This document shows, piece after piece, positions 3,181 through 58,453 of a stretch of 64,000 nucleotides of DNA. The stretch is taken from the NCBI GenBank assembly GCA_049303905.1, contig JBAQNP010000020.1, forward strand, positions 5,584-69,583. Direction: 5' to 3'. The notes under the pieces are model-generated. The model was not told where the DNA came from and did no database searches. It saw only the letters and a list, made by a program, of their open reading frames with translations. The translations under genes and the position numbers were made by a program. This DNA is from Candidatus Moraniibacteriota bacterium. Lineage in GTDB: Bacteria > Patescibacteriota > Minisyncoccia > Moranbacterales > UBA2206. Within the stretch, counting starts at the first letter, position 1. Each line of letters opens with the position of its first letter.

Positions 3181-3245
3181 AATTAACTCACGGTCTAATT
3201 TTCTGGCTAAAAATTTTCCTCAATCGACGGCTGGAGGAAGGGACT
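3181..3245 (+). repeat. Copy 1 of a recurrent hairpin motif (loop core CTCAATCGACGGCTGG) in the tgt 5' region
   Basis: Shares aattaactc...ttctggctaaaaattttcctcaatcgacggctgg with copies at 3297, 4596, 14690 and 60375. Confidence 0.5.
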
Positions 3246-4712: not shown

Positions 4713-6080
4713 ATGAAAAATTCAATTAATAATAAAAAAATAGAATTACTGGCTCCAGCTGGCTTGCCTCGCCAAAGCAAAAAAAAGACAAAAGTCGAAT
4801 TGCTTGCGCCGGCGGGCAGTATTGAAAAAATGAAATATGCCTTTGCCTATGGCGCGGACGCGGTTTATTTTGGTGTGCCGGATTTTTCTCTTCGTGTAAG
4901 GATTAATAAATTTAGCGAAAAAGATATTTTGGAAGCTGTCTCCTATGCTCATAAGTTAGGCAAAAAAATATATGTGACACTTAATATTTATGCGCATAAT
5001 CAACATTTGGAAAAAGTAGAAAAACATTTGAAGTTTCTTAGGAATATAAAAATCGACGGAATTATCGCTAGTGATCCGGGGATAATAAATTTGGTCAAAA
5101 AATATTTGCCGAAAGTGGACATCCATCTTTCCACTCAAGCTAATGCGACCAATTTTGAGGCGGTGAAATTTTGGAAAAGTTTGGGAGTGAAAAGAATAAT
5201 TTTGGCGCGCGAAGTGACGCTCAAGGAAATTGAAGAAATCGGAAAAAAAGTGAAAGGTATTGAGCTGGAGTATTTTGTTCACGGGGCAATGTGTATGAGT
5301 TATTCCGGTAGGTGTATTCTTTCTAAATGGATAAATGACAAGAGTGCAAACCTTGGAGATTGTACTCAGCCTTGCAGGTGGAAATATCATGAAGCATGTA
5401 GCATGAAACATGAAACAAAAGAAATATCTTTGATAGACAATCAAAAAAGATTCGAGATGGATATTGAAGAGGATCAGCACGGGACATATTTTTTTAATAG
5501 TTACGATATGAATCTGATTTCTCACATGGAAGAATTGGTGAAGGCCGGAATAAGTTCAATGAAAATTGAAGGACGAGCCAAAAGCGTCTATTATGTTGCG
5601 GTAGTGACACGGGCATATAGAAAAGTTTTGGACGCAATTTTGAATAAAAAAAATAGCTCAAAGGAAATTAGGAAAATAATTTCAGAACAAAAGAAAGAGT
5701 TGGATAATTTGGTTCATCGCGGTTATTCCACAGGTTTTCTTTTAGGCAACGAGCCGGCGCATAATTTTGAAGGAAAAATACAAAAGGGAAATTGGGAATT
5801 TGTTGGAGAGGTCATGGGCGTAAATGCAGGGACAGGTTTAAAACCTGTCCGTACTAATATTATGAAAATTCATAATGCAGTTTTGAGGCAGGATAAAATC
5901 GAAGCTATTACGCCGGAGAAAAATATTACACTCAAAATTAAAAAGATATTTAACGATCAGAAAAAAGAAATTTCTGAGGCTCACGGTGGGCATGAAAAAT
6001 TATATTACTTTGAGTTTGATAAGGTTTTGCCGGAGGGGAGTTTGATTAGGAAAAAAATAATTCTACAAAATACAAATTAA
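4713..6080 (+). CDS. Peptidase U32 family protein (PrtC/RlhA-like)
   Basis: 455 aa with ELLAPAG...AVYFG and EYFVHGAMCMSYSGRC motifs typical of U32. The ELLAPAG motif is duplicated at the N-terminus, and the CDS holds an MKHET element at 5388-5421. Confidence 0.8.
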   Translation: MKNSINNKKIELLAPAGLPRQSKKKTKVELLAPAGSIEKMKYAFAYGADAVYFGVPDFSLRVRINKFSEKDILEAVSYAHKLGKKIYVTLNIYAHNQHLEKVEKHLKFLRNIKIDGIIASDPGIINLVKKYLPKVDIHLSTQANATNFEAVKFWKSLGVKRIILAREVTLKEIEEIGKKVKGIELEYFVHGAMCMSYSGRCILSKWINDKSANLGDCTQPCRWKYHEACSMKHETKEISLIDNQKRFEMDIEEDQHGTYFFNSYDMNLISHMEELVKAGISSMKIEGRAKSVYYVAVVTRAYRKVLDAILNKKNSSKEIRKIISEQKKELDNLVHRGYSTGFLLGNEPAHNFEGKIQKGNWEFVGEVMGVNAGTGLKPVRTNIMKIHNAVLRQDKIEAITPEKNITLKIKKIFNDQKKEISEAHGGHEKLYYFEFDKVLPEGSLIRKKIILQNTN

Positions 6081-8239: not shown

Positions 8240-8863
8240 ATGAAAAATAAAAAAACTATACCAAAACAAAAATCACTTTCAATTATTCCGGACGAAAGAA
8301 TTGTAGGAAAAATATATCTGATTCGAGGAGAAAAGGTGATGTTTGATCGTGATTTAGCGGAGCTTTATGAAGTGGAAACAAAAGCATTGAACAGAGCGGT
8401 TAAAAGAAATATAAAAAGATTCCCAGCTGATTTTATGTTTCAGTTGGATAAAAATGAATCTGAAATATTTTCAAGGTACCATTCTGGCACCTTGAAAGAG
8501 GATGCTAACTTGAAGTCACAAATTGTGACTTCAAGAGATGACAAAAACTTGAGGTACCAAATTGGCACTTCAAGGTCACAAATTGTGACCTTGAAGAAAG
8601 GGCAGAATATAAAGTATCGCCCTTATGTTTTTACCGAACAAGGTGTAGCCATGCTGTCAGCTGTTTTGAAGAGTGAGAGAGCAATTGAAGTAAGCATCCA
8701 AATTGTTCGAGTTTTTATAAAAATGAAAAAATTATTGACTACTCATAAAGAACTGCGAGAAAAAATTGAGAAAATGGAAAAATCGAACAAAGAAAATTTC
8801 ACCCCGTTAGAAATTTTTAAAAATAAATATTATGAAATGGTGGTACATTTATGTTTTGCTTAG
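8240..8863 (+). CDS. ORF6N (KilA-N-like) domain protein
   Basis: 207 aa. N-terminus IRGEKVMFDRDLAELYEVETKALNRAVKRNIKRFPADFMFQL is the canonical ORF6N signature, and the C-terminal YVFTEQGVAMLSAVLKSERAIEVSIQIVRVF is conserved. Has an internal duplicated SQIVT segment. Confidence 0.75.
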   Translation: MKNKKTIPKQKSLSIIPDERIVGKIYLIRGEKVMFDRDLAELYEVETKALNRAVKRNIKRFPADFMFQLDKNESEIFSRYHSGTLKEDANLKSQIVTSRDDKNLRYQIGTSRSQIVTLKKGQNIKYRPYVFTEQGVAMLSAVLKSERAIEVSIQIVRVFIKMKKLLTTHKELREKIEKMEKSNKENFTPLEIFKNKYYEMVVHLCFA

Positions 8864-9098
8864 TCTAAAGGATAATAAATGGTATACTGGATATACTGGT
8901 AATCTAAAAAATAGAATTGCAAAACATAATTCTGGAGAAGTATTTTCTACAAAAAACAGGAAGCCATTTAAACTGATATATTCAGAAGCTTGTTTAAATA
9001 AATTAGACGCCCAAGCTCGAGAAAGATATTTAAAATCAGGAATGGGCAAAAGATATCTTAGGAATAGATTAAGATGTTATTTTGATAAAAATGATTAA
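8832..9098 (+). CDS. GIY-YIG nuclease domain protein, small stand-alone
   Basis: 88 aa. YIYVLLS...KWYTGYTGNLKNRIAKHN matches the GIY-YIG motif. Overlaps the 3' end of the ORF6N gene by 32 nt. Confidence 0.7.
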   Translation: MKWWYIYVLLSLKDNKWYTGYTGNLKNRIAKHNSGEVFSTKNRKPFKLIYSEACLNKLDAQARERYLKSGMGKRYLRNRLRCYFDKND

Positions 9099-12100: not shown

Positions 12101-14652
12101 CAACAGTCAAATACAGCGCTGATGCCGGAGTCTTTACTACCGGTAAAGTGATAACCACTTTACGAAACAACGGCACTCCCTACGGACCGCACACGGTTAC
12201 TCTTACCAATCTCAGTCCTAATACTACCTACTATTTCCAAGTTCAATCGGCTGATCAAAATGACAACGAAGCTACTAAACCCCAATCTGGTGATGATGAG
12301 TATCCAGACGGCTACAGTTTCACTACCGATCCTGGGCCACCAATTCATAGTGCTTGGACCACTCGAGTGACCAATCATAGCGCCACCATTGCTTGGAGCA
12401 CTGCCGGCACTCCTCCGGAAACATCCGTACCTTCTAATTCTGTGGTCACTTATTCCAAAAACTTTGACTTAGGCGAACCAACCACCATTGGAGGTTCTGA
12501 TGACTTAGTGACTTATCACGAAGTAACTATTAATGATCTTGATCAAGGAACTCTCTATTATTACCAAGTTCAATCCAGTGACGGCAACTATACTTCAATT
12601 GGAAAAAATGGTGACAGCTATTTCAGTTTCACCACCGACATTGACAACGTCGCCCCAACAATTACTTTCGATCCCGACACCGATATTACTAAAACTGACA
12701 CTACCGCCAGAGTTTCTTGGACAACCTCTAGTGAATCAGCTAGATCAACTCTGGAATATGGTACTGATACTGATTATGATTTAGGTACGCTCACCAATGC
12801 TAATTACAATACTAATCACATTTTTGATTTAGAAGATCTTACTCCAGAAACTACTTACTATATCCGACTTACCTCGACTGATATTAATGACAATGCGACT
12901 GTAGTAAGTGGAAATAGTTTTACTACTTTGGCGATAGCTGATGAGAGTGGGCCGACTATTTCAGACGTGGTAGTGAGTGATCTTAAGTATAATGAAGCGA
13001 CAGTTAGTTGGGAGACAGACACAGCCAGTGATTCTCGAGTGGAATATATTACAGCTACAGGCGGGGATTTTAGTGAGGCACCCTTTGCGGGAATAGCTAC
13101 ATCAAAAAACAACGCATCCGATCTTGGTCTTCACTCTGTAATTCTCTCTGGCCTCAACTCCATCACCACCTACTATTTCCAAGTTAAATCCACTGATCAA
13201 GATGGTAACACTTCTACATTAAAAGAAGGAACCAATGGCTACACCTTCACCACCACCTCCCCAACCACCGACTCTGACTCCAACGGCGAAGGAGATCAAC
13301 TCACCGACATCATGTCTCAAATCCAAGATATGATCGACAACTACTATTTCACCGAAGCCGAAATCCAAGACGCTCTCTCCGGACTCTATTCCATCTCCAT
13401 AACCAGTAGTGGCCCATCTGTAGATATCACTGACACCACCGCTACTTTCACCTGGACCACTAACCGACCAGCTATCGGCAAGATTTACTATTGGCAAGAC
13501 ACTGACAACGAGGACACGGCCGTAAGCCAAGCCGAAAACATCACTGCGGCTAGAACTGACCATGAAATCATAATTAAAAACCTCAACGCTAACACCAAGT
13601 ATAATTTCTACGCTTACTCCGAAGGACTCCTAGGTACCACCACCCAATCAGAAAACAAATCTTTCTCCACGGAAGACACCGCCAGTCTCTCTGGCATCTC
13701 CATTTCCAACCTTACTCTTAACTCCGCCGATATCTCTTGGACCACCACTGGCTCCATTGACTCTTCCCAACTTGAATACGGCGAATCAATTAAATATGGC
13801 AACGAAAACAAAGGTAAAACAGACGGCAATCTCCATACTGTCAATTTAACCAACCTCAAAGAAAACACCACTTACCACCTAAGAGTCACTGCTACCGACT
13901 CTGACGGTCAAACCCTCACCAGTGACGACTACTCCTTCACCACCACTTCTCTCCCCGTAATCTCCAACGTTACCATCAAAGATATCCAAATCGAATCCGC
14001 CACCATTAATTGGCAAACTAACGTCAAAACAGACTCCCGAGTAGAATTCAAAAAAGAAAACCAAGACCAAGGGACTACCACCGGTAAACTCGAAGCAGTG
14101 ACTGACCACTCCTTCACTCTTACCAACCTTTTCCCTGGAACTAGATATACTTTCAAAGTCTCTTCCAAAGACACCTTCAACAATGAATCTAGTAGTGAAG
14201 AACAATCTTTCACTACCAACGAAGATCTCAACGCTCCCCAAATCACCAACGTTAAATCTGACACCACCGTCTTTCCTGGTAAAGAAGCTCAAATCCAAAC
14301 CATCATTAGTTGGAATACTGACAAAGATTCTAATTCTATCCTGGCTTACCGCGAAGGAGTCGAAAAAGACCCTAACCTAATTGACCAACTTAAAAACCCT
14401 GACATAACTAAAATTGATAACTGGAAACTAATCAAAAAACAAGATCTCACCAAAAACCATCTCTTTGTCCTGACTGATCTAAAACCTGCCAGTGTCTATC
14501 AATTCAGAACTGCTTCATATGACAAACACAACAATGTCTCAGTCTCAGAAAACTATTCCTTACTCACCCCCACTAAACAACAATCCGTCCTAGATCTCAT
14601 CATCCAAAACTTTGAATCTACCTTTGGATGGGTGAAGAGGATTGGGAATTAA
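9163..14652 (+). CDS. Giant cell-surface protein (1829 aa) with N-terminal TM/signal, a glycine-rich (GGxGG)n module and about 10 tandem Fn3-like domains
   Basis: N-terminal hydrophobic segment. Residues about 190-330 are Gly repeats (GGGGSGGGYGGYGG...). Repeated units of about 90 aa follow the pattern ATITW.T...S.V.YG......LT.L.P.T.YYFQV.S.D..N. C3-rich codon usage is unlike neighbouring genes. Reverse-strand Pro-rich ORFs here are artefacts. Confidence 0.8.
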   Translation: MKKKLNALGLEIKIKIKNYSRMFLKSKIKLLIFFFSITVLLVLTSNDASAYTCTWTGTTSTAWAIATNWSGCNSTIPQTTDDVVINVASANQPILDLIGGKTINSLSIGSTLASTLTLSNGLVDVNVNKLTITNNLTIGGSGTITSTANTTAQTHSVNMSVGGNVGIESGGKIDVTGKGLSGGAGGAVYTSGSPGYLINGGGGSGGGYGGYGGSCGGGGGYGGAGGGGTGGAGGIVHDQVDNSHPTVLGSGGGGGSGDGAGHAGSAGGKGGGSIKLNVLGILTLNSGSGIYSNGSNGINGGASGGGGGGAGSGGSIWIQAGTITGTGTVRANGGTGGTVTAFSITAIGGGGGAGGRIAISSTRGLTITAAGGLGYDSLYGGTGTIYYNASGIYTSEVLDFSGARDFTTSDITKSEPGTSTVVVSLHGGDTDNPNDWADNWTVINDNDDISVFDNFRYLQYKVEFSFTGLSTEDKPSLQDISINYNAYLDKTLTSSVYNSNSDANLIGGISWDETLSSNTNIKFQIQTSADGVTNWSGWFGPDETDTTYFDETDSPDFCTKTDSIVTCTVDAIPSAFKDGANDQYYQYKAYLDTTDGLATPTLNSVTVTYVVNANPEIEASQTTAVPDANQRVNVSYNVRDTDSVSGTITPSFEYSLDGGSSWVSITSGCLGATDLAAKTVNTTEETKNNYITYTAVWTPACEAGISTTTYEIDVQIRVRADDGQAANRYGYGTTENFTLDTKAPIPDTKSIIISARKTTDNLALNAVDDSTKQMRVGLESDLSDGTWIDYNTLATIDITDNPETAYVQFRDIFGNTSEIESVTAPVAPQSLMIQDTSNTLLAEPEYRLFIAWQVLDNDQYGALFDKYVIYRSADNGATYTEVHTISDISTNYWADNTVVGEATYYYRVTHKNDYGIESFGNESAYSDPVYGNANGVEDAGEGGGGTSSVPPVISNVAIPEDSIYSTQATITWDTDTLSDSTVKYSADAGVFTTGKVITTLRNNGTPYGPHTVTLTNLSPNTTYYFQVQSADQNDNEATKPQSGDDEYPDGYSFTTDPGPPIHSAWTTRVTNHSATIAWSTAGTPPETSVPSNSVVTYSKNFDLGEPTTIGGSDDLVTYHEVTINDLDQGTLYYYQVQSSDGNYTSIGKNGDSYFSFTTDIDNVAPTITFDPDTDITKTDTTARVSWTTSSESARSTLEYGTDTDYDLGTLTNANYNTNHIFDLEDLTPETTYYIRLTSTDINDNATVVSGNSFTTLAIADESGPTISDVVVSDLKYNEATVSWETDTASDSRVEYITATGGDFSEAPFAGIATSKNNASDLGLHSVILSGLNSITTYYFQVKSTDQDGNTSTLKEGTNGYTFTTTSPTTDSDSNGEGDQLTDIMSQIQDMIDNYYFTEAEIQDALSGLYSISITSSGPSVDITDTTATFTWTTNRPAIGKIYYWQDTDNEDTAVSQAENITAARTDHEIIIKNLNANTKYNFYAYSEGLLGTTTQSENKSFSTEDTASLSGISISNLTLNSADISWTTTGSIDSSQLEYGESIKYGNENKGKTDGNLHTVNLTNLKENTTYHLRVTATDSDGQTLTSDDYSFTTTSLPVISNVTIKDIQIESATINWQTNVKTDSRVEFKKENQDQGTTTGKLEAVTDHSFTLTNLFPGTRYTFKVSSKDTFNNESSSEEQSFTTNEDLNAPQITNVKSDTTVFPGKEAQIQTIISWNTDKDSNSILAYREGVEKDPNLIDQLKNPDITKIDNWKLIKKQDLTKNHLFVLTDLKPASVYQFRTASYDKHNNVSVSENYSLLTPTKQQSVLDLIIQNFESTFGWVKRIGN

Positions 14653-14689
14653 GGAGAGAACTAAAAACAAAAAAATATTCTTGAAATTA

Positions 14690-14755
14690 ACTCGCCCTTG
14701 ATTTTTATAGCTAAAAATATCCCTCAATCAACGGCGGGAAAGGATATTTTAAGAT
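14690..14755 (+). repeat. Copy 3 of the hairpin motif (aattaactcgcccttgatttttatagctaaaaatatccctcaatcaacggcgggaaaggatatttt)
   Basis: 9-bp stem aaaatatcc/ggatatttt around the 19-nt loop ctcaatcaacggcgggaaa. The upstream arm aattaactc...gctaaaaat is shared with copy 1. Confidence 0.55.
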
Positions 14756-15027
14756 AAAAATCTAGGGCTCAAACAAGAATTTCGGCGAATATTTTTTGTT
14801 TTTAGTGGAGAGGAGGGAGAGAGGCGAGATATGAAGCATGAAAAAAGAGGGGTTCAATTTTATCGATAAAATTACAAAAAGGCTTATATAAAGCAAAATA
14901 GAATAACGGCTATTGCGTAAAAAACTGCCACATGGTAGGATATTTAGGTCGTTTTGAAAACTGGGTGGCAGGGAGGTTTAGCAAAAGCTTAGGCTAAAAA
15001 GGGGACATTCCAGACAAACTGAAAATA

Positions 15028-15711
15028 ATGAGCGGACAACTTCGGCTCGGGGGGATAAGGAGGATAAAAAAACATAATATTCTAGTACTAATAATTCTCG
15101 CGGTAGTCGTGAGGTTGTTTTTTTCTATCTTTTTAGGCGATAATGCTTTGGCAAAAAAGCCAGAAGACATTTCTAATAGTCAAAAATTCAGTTCAATTGA
15201 TCCATTAAAAAACATTAATCCTGAAAATCTTTTTGAAAAAAGTGATGTAAAAGCTAGCTATAATAAATCAACCCTTAAAAAAGATAAAGAATCTAATAAT
15301 AAACAAGAAGAGATCTATGATGAGCTAGTAAAAGGCTATCCTTTGGCTGTTATGACTTTGGAAATTTCTAAACAGGACAAATCAGTAGCAGCCTTTCTCA
15401 TCGCCATCGCCAAAAAAGAAAGTGATTGGGGGAAACATTCTCCAAAAAAGAATGGTGAAGATTGTTATAATTATTGGGGGTATCGTGGAGGTTATAATGC
15501 CACTGAATCAGGATATAGTTGTTTTGACAGTCCAAGTCAAGCTATTGCAGTCGTGGGAGGAAGAATTGAAAATTTAATTGATCAAGGAATTAATACGCCA
15601 GAGAGAATGATTGTTTGGAAATGCGGGCGGGATTGTTCTTGGGATAATCCAGTAGCCGTCAAAAAATGGGTGAGTGATGTGAGTGCCTATTATCATAAAT
15701 TGAATTCATAG
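15028..15711 (+). CDS. Secreted or membrane-anchored protein, possibly GH73-like N-acetylglucosaminidase domain
   Basis: 227 aa with an N-terminal TM. KESDWGKH...NYWGYRGG loosely resembles the ESGWG...NNLFGI motif of FlgJ/LytD glucosaminidases. Cys-rich C-terminus. The family call is weak. Confidence 0.45.
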   Translation: MSGQLRLGGIRRIKKHNILVLIILAVVVRLFFSIFLGDNALAKKPEDISNSQKFSSIDPLKNINPENLFEKSDVKASYNKSTLKKDKESNNKQEEIYDELVKGYPLAVMTLEISKQDKSVAAFLIAIAKKESDWGKHSPKKNGEDCYNYWGYRGGYNATESGYSCFDSPSQAIAVVGGRIENLIDQGINTPERMIVWKCGRDCSWDNPVAVKKWVSDVSAYYHKLNS

Positions 15712-15720
15712 TGGGTGAAA

Positions 15721-15861
15721 CTTATTCAATTAAATATGCCGAACGCGCTTCGGCGCGGAAGCATTCTAGTGATAAAAAGTCTCGACATGCTTGTAATAAA
15801 TAATCTATGTGAATAATTTTTAAGCGCCTCCGTAAGCTCTCGACATATTTAATTGAATAAG
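15721..15861 (+). repeat. MITE-like element A: 141 bp bounded by perfect 17-bp terminal inverted repeats CTTATTCAATTAAATAT/ATATTTAATTGAATAAG
   Basis: Interior carries the hairpin cgcgcttcggcgcg and the block ttaagcgcctccgtaagctctcgacat, shared with element B at 32655-32807. Confidence 0.7.
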
Positions 15862-20578: not shown

Positions 20579-20983
20579 ATGCGTATAACGAAAGAACAAA
20601 AAGCGAATACGGCTAAAATTGCCAAAAAGCATAAACTAAAATTGGTCGTCATTTTTGGTTCTTTTGCCAGTGGAAAAAACAGAAAAGACAGTGATTTGGA
20701 TATGGGCGTGATTGGGGAAAAAGAAATTTCTTTTGAAAAGCAAATTGTCTTGACAAATGAATTATCTCAAATTTTCAAAAAGGATATCGATCTTTCAGTT
20801 TTAAATAGAGCTAATCCGCTATTACTTTTTGAGGCCAGTAGAAATGCTGTTTTAGTCTATGGCGAGAATAGTGAATTGGCCAAATTCAAGTTGTATGCTT
20901 TTCGAGTATACAATGACTATGCACCATATTTCAAAATTGAAAATGAATTGAATAAAAGATTAATAAAATCTTATGCCAGTTGA
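20579..20983 (+). CDS. Nucleotidyltransferase (MNT) antitoxin component of a HepT/MNT toxin-antitoxin pair
   Basis: 134 aa. GSFASGKNRKDSDLDMGV is the minimal nucleotidyltransferase GS...D.D motif. Confidence 0.8.
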   Translation: MRITKEQKANTAKIAKKHKLKLVVIFGSFASGKNRKDSDLDMGVIGEKEISFEKQIVLTNELSQIFKKDIDLSVLNRANPLLLFEASRNAVLVYGENSELAKFKLYAFRVYNDYAPYFKIENELNKRLIKSYAS

Positions 20984-21395
20984 TAAAAATATTATCATTA
21001 GAAAAATAACTTTGATAAACAAGGATTTAAAAAGTTTGGAAAAACTTAGTAAGCTTTCATTGAAAACTTATCTGAGCAAATCGGAATACGAAGCAATGGC
21101 GGAAAGATATCTGGAGAGAATAATTGGTCGGATGATTGATATTAATTATCATATTTTGTCAGAAAAAGAGAATAAAACTGCGGTAGATTTCTATAATTCC
21201 TTTATTGAAATGGGTAAGAAAAAATATTTGCCATCAAAGCTAGCACTTGTTATGGCTAATTCAGCAGGACTTAGGAATAGGTTAGCTCATGAATATGATG
21301 AAATTGATGAGAAAAAAGTTTTTGAAGCGATAGCTTCATGCTTGCGAGATGTTCCGAAATATTTAAAAAGTATTATGAAAGTTTTGAATTTGTAA
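20973..21395 (+). CDS. HepT-like (DUF86) toxin component
   Basis: 140 aa. The RNRLAHEYDEID sequence carries the R(x)4HxY motif. Overlaps the MNT gene by 11 nt, the usual toxin-antitoxin operon arrangement. Confidence 0.8.
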   Translation: MPVDKNIIIRKITLINKDLKSLEKLSKLSLKTYLSKSEYEAMAERYLERIIGRMIDINYHILSEKENKTAVDFYNSFIEMGKKKYLPSKLALVMANSAGLRNRLAHEYDEIDEKKVFEAIASCLRDVPKYLKSIMKVLNL

Positions 21396-26371: not shown

Positions 26372-27724
26372 ATGAAATTCGCATTGTTCGTATCGCTTAT
26401 GCGTATTGCAATTTTTACTAATAACTATTTACCTAATCCCTATGGCGTGACGCGGTCGATTGAAACATTTCGACGCGAGATGGAAAAACAGGGGAATGAG
26501 GTCTTTATTTTTGCTCCGTACTGGAAAAATTATAAGGATGTCAATAAAAATGTTTTTCGTTTTCCTTCATTTGATATTGAAATTAAATTTCGCTTTCCTT
26601 TGGCGATTCCATATTCCTGGAAAATTGATAAGATAATAAAGAATCTTGATCTGGATGTGATTCATGCTCAGCATCCCAATCTTCTTGGAAGCGTGGCAAT
26701 GAAATGGGCGAAGAGGAAAAAGATTCCCTTGATTTTTACTTGGCACACTCTTTATGATCAATATACTAATTTTGTGCCGTTTGTCCCAGCAAAAATTTCG
26801 GCCGGATATATTATCAAAAAAGCGGTTAAATTTGCTAACTTGGCGGACGCCGTAATTGTGCCGACAGATTCAATCATTCCAATTATTCGAAAATGGGGGG
26901 TGAAAAATTGTCATCCTGAATTTACCTTGCCTACCGGCAGGCAGGTTTCAGGATCTAAAAAAGAGATGCTGAAACAAGTTCAGCATGACAGAATATATGC
27001 TATCCCGACAGGAGTTCTTGAGGAAGAATTTGAAAATCCTGATAGAAATAAAATAAGAAAAAAATATAATATAAAAGATGATGAAACTGTTCTGTTTATG
27101 GTTTCCCGATTAACTGCGGAAAAAAATGTTGAATTTATTTTTCGATCAATTAAGAATATTCTAGCGGACAGTCCGCTAGAGGGCGGACTGTCCGCGCTTA
27201 ATGTTAAATTTCTAGTTGTAGGAGATGGGTATCTCAGGAATAATTTAGAAGAATATTGCCGACGGGAAAATATTTCAGAAAAAATAATTTTTTGCGGAGA
27301 AGTAGAAAGGCAAGAAATTAAAAATTATTTTGCTTCTGCGGATATTTTTGTCTATGGCTCAAAATCAGAAACGCAAGGAATGATAATCACCGAGGCGATG
27401 TATATGGGGCTCCCAATCGTGGCAGTTTCGGCGACCGGGATAAATAGTTTAGTTTTGAATAATGGCAATGGATTTTTAGTAGAAGAAAATTCACCCTGTG
27501 GAATACCGCTACGCGGTAGCGACAAAGTCGCTATTCCACAGGGCGAGAAAGAATTTGAAAAAGCAGTTTTTAAATTGATTAACGACAAAGATTTACGAAA
27601 AAAATTTGGCGAAACTTCCGCGCGTATCGCTAGAATTAATTTCACCTCTTCGATTTGCGCCGAGAAAATTTTGAAAGTTTATAATAACCTTATTGAAAGT
27701 AAAAAAAGACATTATTCTAGATGA
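26372..27724 (+). CDS. Glycosyltransferase family 4 (GT-B, group 1)
   Basis: The C-terminal domain has GSKSETQGMIITEAMYMGLPIVA (the EX7E region). The true start is probably MRIAIF at 26399, because the first 9 codons lie inside a gcgaat-repeat array. The CDS holds three different palindromic insertions (26909-26990, 27160-27196, 27493-27545). Confidence 0.8.
   Translation: MKFALFVSLMRIAIFTNNYLPNPYGVTRSIETFRREMEKQGNEVFIFAPYWKNYKDVNKNVFRFPSFDIEIKFRFPLAIPYSWKIDKIIKNLDLDVIHAQHPNLLGSVAMKWAKRKKIPLIFTWHTLYDQYTNFVPFVPAKISAGYIIKKAVKFANLADAVIVPTDSIIPIIRKWGVKNCHPEFTLPTGRQVSGSKKEMLKQVQHDRIYAIPTGVLEEEFENPDRNKIRKKYNIKDDETVLFMVSRLTAEKNVEFIFRSIKNILADSPLEGGLSALNVKFLVVGDGYLRNNLEEYCRRENISEKIIFCGEVERQEIKNYFASADIFVYGSKSETQGMIITEAMYMGLPIVAVSATGINSLVLNNGNGFLVEENSPCGIPLRGSDKVAIPQGEKEFEKAVFKLINDKDLRKKFGETSARIARINFTSSICAEKILKVYNNLIESKKRHYSR
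26909..26990 (+). repeat. Double-hairpin element family 2 copy, in-frame inside the GT4 gene (encodes CHPEFTLPTGRQVSGSKKEMLKQVQHD)
   Basis: tgtcatcctgaattt...ttcaggatc...gagatgctgaaacaagttcagcatgaca. The same element is intergenic at 31308, 40896 and 53703. This copy also carries an inner ccggcaggcagg palindrome. Confidence 0.7.
27160..27196 (+). repeat. GC-rich perfect 13-bp hairpin (gcggacagtccgc-tagagg-gcggactgtccgc) in-frame in the GT4 gene
   Basis: Seen directly. Encodes LADSPLEGGLSAL. Confidence 0.6.
27493..27545 (+). repeat. Composite palindrome ccctgtggaata...tattccacaggg (family 5) in-frame in the GT4 gene
   Basis: 12-bp terminal inverted repeats enclose two inner palindromes (gctacgcggtagc, agcgacaaagtcgct). 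The same terminal repeat bounds a 94-nt region upstream of glmS. Confidence 0.6.
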
Positions 27725-32654: not shown

Positions 32655-32807
32655 GAGGACTTGCATATTTAAAAATACTGAACGCGCTACGGCGCGAAAA
32701 ATATTTTTAAAAATAAAGTCCCGACATATTCGTAAAGATTAAATTAATGCTAGAATTTCTTAAGCGCCTCCGTAAGCTCTCAATATTTTTAAATATACAA
32801 GTCCTAA
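32655..32807 (+). repeat. MITE-like element B, about 153 bp, terminal inverted repeats AGGACTTGcATATTTAAAAATA / TATTTTTAAATATACAAGTCCT
   Basis: Interior matches element A (gaacgcgctacggcgcg..., aaagtcccgacat, ttaagcgcctccgtaagctctcaat). Confidence 0.7.
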
Positions 32808-32827: not shown

Positions 32828-33835
32828 ATGGAAACACAATCAAAAAAAGTAGAAATTTCAACTAGTATTGTGCTCAAAACTATAGTGATTCTTTTGGGTC
32901 TGTGGTTTTTGTTTTTGGTGCGGGATATTATAATCTTGGTTTTTATCGCGGTTATTATCGCAGCCTCAATTGATCCGGGGGTGGATCTTCTTCAAAGAAA
33001 AAAAATTCCGCGTTCGGCTGGAGCAATGCTCATTTATGTGCTTTTGTTTTCCGTTCTAGCACTTATCGTGTCTTTTATGGTGCCGTCTATCGTCAGTCAA
33101 TTTAATGATTTTTCTCATAATTCTTCACAATATTTTGGAGACTTTGGAAGTATCATTAATTCTTCACAAAATTCTGGTATCAATAGAATCATCCAAGGTC
33201 TGGCTAATAATATTGAAAGTAGTTTTACTAACATTTCAACAAATATTTTTTCCAAAACCCTCGGAGTATTTTCTGGTTTGCTTTCGGTAGTGGTAGTTTT
33301 TTCAATGGCTTTCTATATGGTGATGGAAGAAAGCGGGATCAAAAAATTTATCGTTTCGATTATGCCGGAAAAAAACAAAACTTACGCCGCTAGTCTCACT
33401 GATAGAATTGAAGGTAAGATTGGAAAGTGGATGCTCGGGCAACTTTTTTTGATGCTCGTAATTTTTGTTTTGGATTTTATCGGGCTATATTTAGTTGGCG
33501 TGCCCTATCCTTTGCTTTTGGCGCTTTTTGCTGGAATTTTAGAAGTGGTGCCATATGTCGGACCGATAATCTCTGCCGTTCCGGGGATAATTTTGGGATT
33601 TTTGGTTTCTCCAACTGTGGGAATGATGGCTTTTGTGGTCTATCTTATTGCACAACAATTCGAGAGTCATGTGGTTATTCCGCTTACGATGAAAAAAGCA
33701 GTCGGACTCAATCCTGTGGTGACAATTGTCGCAATTCTAATCGGTTTCAAATTGGCGGGAGTGCTCGGCGCCATTATCTCTGTGCCGGCGGCTACAGCAG
33801 TCAGCTTGGTAGTTTCTGATTTAATGGAAAAATAG
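32828..33835 (+). CDS. AI-2E family transporter (PerM/UPF0118)
   Basis: 335 aa, 7-8 TM helices and the conserved PY.GPII region. Confidence 0.7.
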   Translation: METQSKKVEISTSIVLKTIVILLGLWFLFLVRDIIILVFIAVIIAASIDPGVDLLQRKKIPRSAGAMLIYVLLFSVLALIVSFMVPSIVSQFNDFSHNSSQYFGDFGSIINSSQNSGINRIIQGLANNIESSFTNISTNIFSKTLGVFSGLLSVVVVFSMAFYMVMEESGIKKFIVSIMPEKNKTYAASLTDRIEGKIGKWMLGQLFLMLVIFVLDFIGLYLVGVPYPLLLALFAGILEVVPYVGPIISAVPGIILGFLVSPTVGMMAFVVYLIAQQFESHVVIPLTMKKAVGLNPVVTIVAILIGFKLAGVLGAIISVPAATAVSLVVSDLMEK

Positions 33836-53789: not shown

Positions 53790-54170
53790 ATGGATATTAG
53801 CTCAATCAAAAACACCCGAGAATTTTTTTGGACGAATCATTCTAAAATGAAACTTCTTCAGTATGGCTTGAGTCCGAGTTCTGTCAAAAGTGTGATCAGG
53901 CGACCTGATCGAACTGAAACTGGCATCGCGCCCAAAACTACGGCGGTGATGAAAAGAAAAGATTCGAAGAAAACTAAAAAAGAGGTTTGGGTGATGATAC
54001 AGAAACATAAAGCATATAACATGAAACATGAAACAAATAAAAAAGAAAAAATGCTTCATGGAGTTAGTTCAAAAACAAAAATAATTTCTGCGTGGATTTA
54101 TCCGGGGGTGAGTCCGAAAGGGAAGGATATTTATGTGCCGGAGGATGTGTGGGGTGCTTTGAATGAATAG
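53790..54170 (+). CDS. Hypothetical protein carrying an MKHET element insertion
   Basis: 126-aa ORF with no recognised family. The internal segment KAYNMKHETNKKEK is encoded by the AT-rich repeat at 54003-54060. Confidence 0.4.
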   Translation: MDISSIKNTREFFWTNHSKMKLLQYGLSPSSVKSVIRRPDRTETGIAPKTTAVMKRKDSKKTKKEVWVMIQKHKAYNMKHETNKKEKMLHGVSSKTKIISAWIYPGVSPKGKDIYVPEDVWGALNE

Positions 54171-54332
54171 AAAAGTTGTTTGGCTTTTTTCCTTACGAAT
54201 TACGAATTTATTACAAATATACGAATGTACGAATAATTAAAAGAATGGGAATGGGTTATTATTTTAAGGTCAAAACTTTATCGATAAAATTGAAATAGGC
54301 TTTATTTAAGGCAAAAAATATATAGAATAATT

Positions 54333-55430
54333 ATGAATATTGAGAAAATCGAACAAATATTAAAAGATCAAAAACAGCCGAAATTTCGCTTGGGGCAGAT
54401 TAAAAAAGCCGTCTATCAAGACGGGATTTCGAGTTTTTCTGAAATTTCGACGATTCCGAAAGAGTTGAGAAGTGTTTTGGAAAAAGAAAGAATACTTTCT
54501 TTTGAAGTGGAAAAAGTTTTAGTTTCAAAGGATGGAAATTCAGCCAAGGCGCTTTTGAAACTAGATGATGGAAACAAAATTGAAACAGTTTTGATTTCTC
54601 CGAAAGCGGATATCTGGTCAGTCTGCATTTCTTGTCAGGTTGGCTGTCCGATGAATTGCGCTTTTTGCGCGACGGGGCAGACGGGATTTAAAAGAAATCT
54701 AACAGCAGAAGAAATAACGGATCAGGTTTTGTTTTGGAAACAATACCTCATGAAGCATGAAACATATAACATGAAACAAAAAACAAATTCAAAATTAAAA
54801 TTATCCAATGTTGTCTATATGGGGATGGGGGAACCATTTTTGAATTGGGGGGAAGTTTTGGAAAGCTTGAAAATTTTGTCAGATCCTAAAGGTATGGCTT
54901 TTGGTTCGCGTTCAATTTCGATTTCGACCGTGGGAATTCCTGGTGGAATAGAAAAATTAACCGAAGATTTCCCACAAGTGAATTTGGCAGTGTCACTTCA
55001 TTTTTCCCAAGATAAAAACAGAAATGAATTTATGCCGGCGAACAAAAATCTAAATTTAGAAAAACTGAAAGTTGAGTTGGAAAAATATTTCGAAAAATCT
55101 AGTCGAAAAATTTTTTTGGAATATATTATGTTTTCCGGGCTCAATGACAGCGAGAAAGATGCAAAAAATCTATTAGAATATATTAAATCTTTCAAAAAAC
55201 CGCAACTCTTGCATGTGAATTTGATTCGATACAACTCTTCGAGCAATAATCAAGAAACAAGAGCCAAGAAACAAAAAATAACAAAAGCAGATAAATTCGT
55301 TTCTTCTAGTGCAGAGCAAGCAGTGAAATTTAGAAATTATCTTCTAGAGAACAAAATTAACTGCACAATCAGAAGAAGTCTTGGTACGGACATCGAAGGA
55401 GCTTGTGGACAGTTGGCAGGAAAAAAATAA
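54333..55430 (+). CDS. rlmN: 23S rRNA (adenine2503-C2)-methyltransferase RlmN (radical SAM)
   Basis: CISCQVGCPMNCAFC cluster and the C-terminal GTDIEGACGQL. Contains an MKHET insertion at 54747-54786. Confidence 0.9.
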   Translation: MNIEKIEQILKDQKQPKFRLGQIKKAVYQDGISSFSEISTIPKELRSVLEKERILSFEVEKVLVSKDGNSAKALLKLDDGNKIETVLISPKADIWSVCISCQVGCPMNCAFCATGQTGFKRNLTAEEITDQVLFWKQYLMKHETYNMKQKTNSKLKLSNVVYMGMGEPFLNWGEVLESLKILSDPKGMAFGSRSISISTVGIPGGIEKLTEDFPQVNLAVSLHFSQDKNRNEFMPANKNLNLEKLKVELEKYFEKSSRKIFLEYIMFSGLNDSEKDAKNLLEYIKSFKKPQLLHVNLIRYNSSSNNQETRAKKQKITKADKFVSSSAEQAVKFRNYLLENKINCTIRRSLGTDIEGACGQLAGKK

Positions 55431-57823: not shown

Positions 57824-58453
57824 TTATTTTTTAAAATATAATTCTCTAATAGATTCTTCAATTGCCTCTCTGATTATTTTTTCTAATTTTAAATAATTAT
57901 GATCATCCGCGAGTTGCAAGGCCTTGATATAATTATTTCTTCCAGAAATTGTTTCGACTTTCAACTCAACTGGTGGTAAATTTAGATTAAGCAAAATGAC
58001 ATTGTTTAGCAATCTGCCGAGTCTGCCATTGTAATCTTGAAATGGATGAATCCAAGAAAATCTATGATGTGCCCAAGCGATCAAAAAAATCAGTTCATCG
58101 AAAAATTTATTGTCATCAATTTTTGGTAGATGTTTTATCCTTATTTGCAGGTCTTGAGTAAATTCAAGCATGAGTTGCGGTACTAAATAAAATTTCGGCG
58201 GAATATGTTTTGAAACCTTGACCTCAATGTTCCGATATCGGCCACCCATTTTTGGGAAAATCCAACCGAAGCCAATTTTGTGAATTTGTTTTATAAATTC
58301 CGGTGTGAGGGGCAAATTGCCTTTCTCGTTTTTTTGCAAAACAAAATCCCACGCCTTTTTTATCCCTTCAATTTCTAAAGGAATTAATTTAGAGCGCGGG
58401 ATGATGCCGAAGGCTGTTTCTTTGTAACTAGTTTCGCCTCTGCGTTTTTTCAT
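57824..58453 (-). CDS. Fic/Doc family protein
   Basis: Fic motif HPFQDYNGRLGRLL (HPFx[DE]GNGR). Confidence 0.85.
   Translation of the reverse strand: MKKRRGETSYKETAFGIIPRSKLIPLEIEGIKKAWDFVLQKNEKGNLPLTPEFIKQIHKIGFGWIFPKMGGRYRNIEVKVSKHIPPKFYLVPQLMLEFTQDLQIRIKHLPKIDDNKFFDELIFLIAWAHHRFSWIHPFQDYNGRLGRLLNNVILLNLNLPPVELKVETISGRNNYIKALQLADDHNYLKLEKIIREAIEESIRELYFKK

Follow-up and report, generated by a model that had tools for sequence, protein, structure and literature searches.

The 64-kb window analysed here, by which we mean the whole stretch of DNA at its full length (G+C content 36.6%), contains two unrelated genes preceded by a similar sequence. The first, at 15028..15711 (+), encodes a 227-aa protein anchored by an N-terminal hydrophobic segment and weakly similar to peptidoglycan hydrolases of the glucosaminidase/FlgJ kind (Pfam PF01832, E = 0.037, below the cutoff); in all relatives, envelope-related genes come after it. 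A database-called N-terminal extension of this protein was rejected, because it requires a change of frame and runs into a stop in the window. The second gene, at 54333..55430 (+), is rlmN, for a radical-SAM 23S rRNA/tRNA adenine C2 methyltransferase that passes the TIGR00048 cutoff. Neither gene is preceded by an SD, and an SD-like sequence occurs in only five of the 54 window genes. At the gene starts of the window, TAnnAT hexamers pile up 0–7 nt upstream of the start codons and are absent at 8–12 nt, a pattern that suggests leaderless or very short-leader mRNAs for many of the genes. The host is Moranbacteria-like, a member of the Patescibacteria: the closest relatives of both RlmN and the 227-aa protein are found in MAGs named Candidatus Moranbacteria, Parcubacteria or Patescibacteria. 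Patescibacteria (candidate phyla radiation) are tiny-genome, mostly uncultivated bacteria.

The two sequences were found where an earlier note on this DNA had placed them, one (copy A, 14856–14906, +) in the intergenic gap 5′ of the 15028 gene and the other (copy B, 54274–54332, +) directly 5′ of rlmN, running into its ATG at 54333 as had been described. Comparison of orthologous loci resolved them as a module of ~45–50 bp with three parts, an AT-rich palindrome, a variable linker and a conserved block, always oriented toward the downstream gene. The perfect 10-bp palindrome reported earlier widens in copy A to a perfect AT-rich 18-mer (AATTTTATCGATAAAATT, 14856..14873, +), with a −10-like TAAAAT in its right arm (14867–14872). 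After the linker ACAAAA (14874..14879, +), conserved in length and not in sequence, comes the block (AGGCTTATATAAAGCAAAA, 14880..14898, +; PWM score 25.4), an imperfect dyad GCTT..AAGC followed by an A-run, and then a −10-like TAGAAT (14899..14904, +) 4 nt ahead of a conserved leader. The palindrome of copy B (AACTTTATCGATAAAATT, 54274..54291, +) is symmetric at 17 of its 18 positions, with one arm mismatch, and carries TAAAAT at 54285–54290; its last TT and the linker GAAAT (54292..54296, +) together read TTGAAA (54290–54295). The block of copy B (AGGCTTTATTTAAGGCAAAAAAT, 54297..54319, +; PWM score 34.4) is followed by TAGAAT (54323..54328, +), 4 nt ahead of the rlmN ATG. Over all instances the block has the consensus (A/T)GGCTT(T)ATTTAAGGCAAAA(A)T, and its dyad is at its best in the relative L071 (GGCTTA-TT-TAAGCC). 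The linker, free in sequence, is 5–6 nt long, or 14 nt in two lineages (L063 and L067/L078/L082) that have acquired independent and different 9-nt insertions, an increment of approximately one helical turn. Dyad symmetry of the palindrome holds in 86% of cells over nine instances, compared to 37–64% with the partner columns slid, and a search across instances for compensatory evolution gave covariation not above the shuffle control.

The only two sites of the core TTATCGATAA in the 64-kb window are at 14860 and 54278. Local alignment of the two copies yielded 45 identities over the 51 bases of A, with indels of 1 and 6 nt, so that the resemblance, previously put at about 40 of 50 positions, was borne out and is far above chance. 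The alignment score of 50 compares with 32 for the next best real match in the window and with ≤38 for the best of 60 shuffled A queries, and the likeness is therefore real. When 278 kb (the window and clade relatives) were scanned with the PWM, module copies scored 25–34 and all other sites ≤16.3. An nhmmer profile of 11 instances, run against a 1.27-Mb set of which ~0.3 Mb is from this clade, gave E ≤ 7e-7 at the two locus types only and ≥4e-3 for all others, these weaker matches being chance sites preselected with the exact pattern. That exact pattern, TTATCGATAAAATTN{5,8}GGCTT, had 59 single matches, in unrelated phyla, among 185,579 species genomes (the source species apparently not among them). 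We rejected these matches as true copies and ascribe them to chance, since their flanks do not continue the motif. In the sequence covered, none but these two gene families is preceded by it (two genes in the 64-kb window and no others in ~0.3 Mb of clade sequence), and a regulon, the possibility raised in the earlier note, is conjectural. Presence at only two locus types in these scans means that the module is not the general promoter consensus of the organism, a reading rejected also because the leuS, dxs and parA promoters differ from it. A literature search gave no mention of TTATCGATAA as an operator and no usable information on promoters of Patescibacteria.

Other short sequences recur in this genome. 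A second shared upstream sequence, AAGCGCCTCCGTAAGCTC, at 15822–15839 and 32762–32779 with ~72 nt of flanking similarity, precedes an EamA-type transporter gene (15921) and an unrelated gene at 32828, and is kept in a relative (L073:1059). Small hairpin repeats of the type GTCATCCTGAAyttrtttcAGGATC are intergenic at 26910, 31309, 40897 and 53704 and are found also in L063 and L065; in relatives they occur inside a leuS insertion as well, and one L065 copy adjoins the rlmN module. Simple intergenic repeats (CATGAAACA, CAAGAAACA, TACGAAT and TTCTAAT types) appear also in frame within genes, namely in rlmN (54738–54800 and ~55260–55300), in a 126-aa ORF (54002–54050) and at 5384–5432. RlmN has variable inserts (MKHETYNMKQKTNS; NNQETRAKKQKITKA), which some close orthologues carry and others lack.

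Orthologous loci were gathered by exact-protein look-up and by a metagenome scan with RlmN. The B-type module is kept 5′ of rlmN in eight related lineages (L063, L065, L067, L075, L077, L078 and L082 among them), whose RlmN proteins are 73–91% identical and whose DNA further upstream is unalignable. The block AGGCTTTATTTAAGGCAAAAAAT is identical or nearly so in L063, L065, L067, L075, L078 and L082, and the L077 copy consists of the block only. No module is present 5′ of rlmN in L068/L076, where dapB lies upstream, or in rlmN relatives at ≤62% protein identity. The A-type module is kept 5′ of orthologues of the 227-aa gene in L071 (87% protein identity), L072 (71%) and L133 (62%), and L137 (59%) retains it in degenerate form; L070 (82%) has lost it by deletion and L073 (84%) has another sequence in its place, the gene itself being retained in both. 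The A-type palindrome of L133 is base-for-base the AACTTTATCGATAAAATT of copy B in the window. Nonetheless, the two types are distinguished by one T, absent from all A-type copies and present in all B-type copies (GGCTT-AT versus GGCTTTAT), and this locus-specific difference indicates that the duplication predates these lineages and that the copies have been maintained separately. L070 and L067 belong to the same MAG (GCA_030654225.1), in which B is present and A missing, so the copies are not obligatorily paired and either can be lost alone. At L070:672–690 (versus window 14652) the whole intergenic region including module A is gone, apparently by a deletion between GGAAT and AGAAT, and the stop of the giant upstream gene (GGGAATAA) is fused directly to the leader; the 227-aa orthologue is then probably co-transcribed with its upstream neighbour. 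Taken across genomes, the comparisons show purifying selection on both copies at two unlinked loci. The earlier note had held that only two occurrences genome-wide, with unrelated flanks, would speak for a chance or duplicated fragment, which is too strict a criterion: conservation across genomes excludes chance, although duplication of a promoter cassette long ago is still a live explanation for there being two copies.

The DNA upstream of the 15028 gene had been described as a single 270-nt leader, which proved wrong as a unit: the intergenic gap measures 375 nt (14653–15027) and is a mosaic of a repeat hairpin, the module and a leader of ~120 nt. The long hairpin (14677–14790; −29.9 kcal/mol, z −4.6) lies downstream of a giant gene with fn3 repeats, and its tip is a member of a repeat family. 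This family has a conserved loop, CAAKCRACGGCKG, and stems that vary from copy to copy yet stay complementary (covarying); its members, found also at 3221, 3311, 4615 and L071:4093, follow several genes, and the family may be a terminator-like or protein-binding element. Across seven orthologous loci, whose proteins are as little as 59% identical, the leader (14907..15027, +) hardly varies; it is better conserved than the protein and was found only before the 15028 gene family. It holds the inverted repeat previously pointed out, CTGCCAC (14925–14931) and GTGGCAG (14965–14971). In three relatives the CTGCCAC arm is replaced by a CCUCCCU-type sequence that can pair with the neighbouring AGGGAGG instead, the alternative pairings thus being of an upstream pyrimidine stretch with GUGGCAG or with AGGGAGG. 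A further leader hairpin, UUUAGC...GCUAAA, has a conserved stem and a variable loop of 8–10 nt. The leader fold is no more stable than shuffles, and consensus folding of the seven sequences gave no convincing covariation. In Rfam searches only tmRNA and two tRNAs of the window reached the gathering score, and nothing credible emerged for 14650–15100 at E up to 10. A small leader ORF (ATG 14932, 21 codons) was rejected, having a stop at codon 4 in L133 and L137. The leader may be a new cis-regulatory RNA, for which it is a candidate.

Scanning ten instances with a sigma-70 matrix revealed three recurring −35/−10 pairings, none of them the best in all instances. One uses the TAAAAT of the palindrome right arm as −10; another joins a TTGAAA-type hexamer at the palindrome/linker junction to the A-run plus T at the block end; the third, in rlmN only, joins TTTATT within the block to the TAGAAT 4 nt before the ATG. 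Among rlmN orthologues with the module, a TAnnAT-like hexamer (CGAAAT in L077) stays at this distance of 4 nt from the ATG despite 2–24 nt inserted after the block. Just ahead of the leader the corresponding hexamer is TAGAAT in the window, TAAAAT in L133 and GATGAT in L073, which has no module. Because conservation of the leader starts sharply at ~14907–14909 with a −10-like hexamer just upstream, we argue that the leader transcript would begin just after the block, the TAGAAT of copy A (14899–14904) likely being its −10. The same hexamer serves as −10 in the well-formed promoters of leuS (TTGAAA-17-TAGAAT) and dxs (TTGCCT-17-TAGAAT), and is therefore an ordinary −10 in this genome; that of parA reads TTGTCA-16-TATAAT. 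The TAGAATAA common to A and B is probably just such an ordinary TAGAAT −10. For dxs, relatives show an ATG start, corresponding to ATG 55566 and not to the TTG 55556 of the ORF list, together with a leader of 15 nt and the conserved promoter. Measured from the block, the strong downstream −10 is 14, 18, 22 or 25 nt away, with 2–24 nt more in some rlmN orthologues; this variation implies that the module is not a rigid part of one core promoter, and it sits awkwardly with an activator of rigid geometry.

Several observations bear on the level at which the module might be recognized. As RNA, the palindrome has a minimum free energy of 0 kcal/mol and forms no stem-loop, for which reason its reading as an RNA hairpin was rejected. 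With its symmetry retained and no RNA fold, recognition at the DNA level is favoured. Moreover, conservation of a ~45-nt sequence at two unlinked loci, with a CG core identical in distant genomes, fits protein binding better than a UP element, and the +9 spacing class, near one helical turn, fits sequence-specific binding of a protein. Known boxes and geometries were tried and rejected. Neither the CodY box AATTTTCWGAAAATT (not enriched in the window, with 31 found versus 25 expected) nor the Fur/PerR 7-1-7 box TGATAATNATTATCA (not enriched in the window) has a match at A or B with ≤3 mismatches; sigma-H-like, sigma-28-like and MerR-type geometries each fit one copy at best and fail the others; and a promoter or terminator on the minus strand would have no gene to serve, and the G–U pairs turn into mismatches on that strand. 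No classical regulator was identified among the 17 window proteins scanned, in which the sole DNA-binding-type domain is that of an ORF6N/Rha-like protein (8240–8863), encoded with an overlapping GIY-YIG gene (8240–9098). The window also carries a nucleotidyltransferase/HepT-like toxin–antitoxin pair of the MNT/HEPN type (20579–21395) and a Fic-domain protein (57824–58453).

The operator-like or promoter motif common to two unrelated genes that the earlier note proposed thus stands, being kept at both loci across related genomes, positioned directly upstream of the rlmN start codon or the 15028-gene leader, and endowed with dyad symmetry and −10-like hexamers. Its constant location upstream of and orientation to the gene, its conservation as an island and its promoter-like hexamers point to a promoter-proximal control cassette. 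With moderate confidence, we interpret A and B as paralogous copies of one such clade-specific cassette carrying operator-like dyads. It would overlap or adjoin the core promoter of rlmN and that of the 227-aa membrane protein gene, the rlmN mRNA being predicted to be leaderless or nearly so and that of the 227-aa gene to have the conserved 120-nt leader. The palindrome and the block would most likely be binding sites for a putative sequence-specific DNA-binding protein, more likely a repressor, given that the sites overlap the −10/−35/start region. Both genes would then be controlled together, and there is no evident functional link between them. A clade-restricted promoter/operator motif before two genes is in itself an ordinary type of finding. 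To our knowledge, essentially no transcriptional regulation has been described in Patescibacteria and almost nothing is known of their promoters and regulators, and a sequence-defined, footprinted module provides a handle for metatranscriptome start-site mapping, for DNA-affinity capture of a regulator and for expression tools. A more far-reaching version, in which the module would be the operator set of a Patescibacteria-specific regulator coupling RlmN to an envelope gene and the leader would represent a cis-regulatory RNA of a new class, either riboswitch-like or protein-binding, we regard as doubtful; if true, it would amount to a two-layer control circuit of operators and leader RNA.

The alternative that survives best, possible in our view if somewhat unlikely, is that of a plain sigma-70-type housekeeping promoter, with no dedicated regulator, that was duplicated by being copied once to a second gene. 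Its parts would be a UP-like T-tract and A-tract, a −35-like TTGAAA/TTACAA at the palindrome–linker junction, the block as spacer and the A-run plus T as −10, and the copies would stay alike because whole promoters evolve very slowly in the clade. Consistent with this, the top matrix matches in the window copies are TTGAAA-18-AAAAAT (B) and ATTACA-17-CAAAAT (A), L133 has TTTATT-17-TAAAAT, and a separate promoter scan of the window returned TTGAAA-18-AAAAAT in B only. UP subsites are located at about −50 and −40, which is where the T-tract and A-tract arms fall in that geometry, and the arms could be mere UP-element-like contacts for the RNA polymerase alpha subunit. The genome has other short intergenic sequences common to unrelated genes. 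Moreover, even where protein identity is down to 74%, relatives conserve the leuS, dxs and parA promoters in full, from the −35 through the spacer as far as the start codon, with the DNA further upstream unalignable; since ordinary promoters of the clade are equally conserved, conservation alone does not demand a dedicated regulator. The details of the module fit less well. The putative −35 lies in its least conserved part, the linker; the putative −10 is weak and its final T is lost in L063, L067 and L071; in the 14-nt spacing class the spacer would grow to 20 nt; and the exact TTATCGATAA core, the same in copy B of the window and the A-type copy of L133, exceeds what A/T tracts need.

An element acting in RNA is a further alternative to the control cassette, one that we find improbable. 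The block would here be a 5′-terminal RNA element, with transcription starting from the palindrome-arm TAAAAT, 6–8 nt upstream of (A/T)GGCTT, so that both mRNAs would open with the same ~22-nt hairpin and A-run, affecting stability or SD-independent translation. In 10 of the 11 instances a −10-like hexamer does end 6–8 nt ahead of the block, including new ones within the 9-nt insertions (GATTAT in L063, GAAATT in L067/78/82), and L133 has at that place a strong TTGAGG-16-TAAAAT, the best matrix score overall. The linker would be discriminator-like, fixed in length and free in sequence, and the block-to-start-codon distance is free (4 to ~130 nt), as expected of a UTR element. The rarity of SD sequences likewise agrees with this reading, as do stem substitutions that are wobble-compatible; by our own estimate, however, three compatible substitutions are expected by chance about once in five times. 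The block hairpins are only marginal (−0.9 to −6.6 kcal/mol, z about −1.4), most copies have no −35, and a TG extension is present in some only. Finally, the leader boundary and the −10 preceding it are kept even in L073, where the module is replaced, which suggests a start downstream of the block.

It is very unlikely that the module is a promoter for an alternative sigma factor, whose −35 and −10 would be the block and a downstream hexamer. The Bacillus sigma-H pattern is RNAGGAWWW-N11-12-RNNGAATWW, and copy A fits it as AAAGGcTTA-N11-ATAGAATAA. All B-type copies separate the two elements by 18–19 nt, L071, L072 and L133 lack GAAT, no spacing from the block to any downstream hexamer is constant, and neither the sigma-28 nor the sigma-54 consensus fits. 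Least probable of all is a non-functional relic, a fragment of a small intergenic repeat element lying by chance before two genes: the window is full of short repeat families and the gene persists where the A copy has been deleted (L070) or replaced (L073), but this reading is largely refuted by cross-genome conservation, the copies being islands in unalignable intergenic DNA down to 62–73% protein identity, always placed and oriented alike with respect to the gene, and confined to two locus types and not a dispersed family.

Compared with known systems, the module shares with CodY and Fur/PerR boxes the form of AT-rich palindromes with AATTTT/AAAATT or GATAA/TTATC arms, but differs in arm spacing. 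MerR-type promoters have a dyad operator centred in an over-long spacer of 19–20 bp; similarly, the block dyad lies between −35-like and −10-like hexamers, and the spacers to TAGAAT would be over-long, 21–22 nt in A and 27 nt in B. Unlike in those promoters, the spacers of the module (16–18 nt to the weak −10 or 21–27 nt to TAGAAT) differ between copies, and that of L133 is 17 nt. In the UP elements of strong sigma-70 promoters, A/T tracts at about −40 to −60 are contacted by the alpha C-terminal domain, and the AT-rich module resembles these elements in having a T-tract and then an A-tract directly upstream of a −35-like hexamer, but it departs from them in its non-A/T core (ATCGAT/ATCAAT) and near-perfect symmetry, and the other promoters of the window do not have it. 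As with propagated (‘mobile’) promoters, the same ~50-bp segment stands before two unrelated genes in a genome that has other shared upstream segments; in contrast to them, there are two copies only, which are old, bear locus-specific signatures shared across genomes and are not recently spreading. Relative to the promoter–operator regions bound by HTH dimers, the module has two known targets only, a geometry to the −10 that is not constant and no match to an operator consensus tested, but it resembles them in placing an 18-bp dyad and a second, imperfect dyad within ~50 bp upstream of the start codon or leader, in overlapping −10/−35-like hexamers, and in being phylogenetically footprinted and common to more than one gene.
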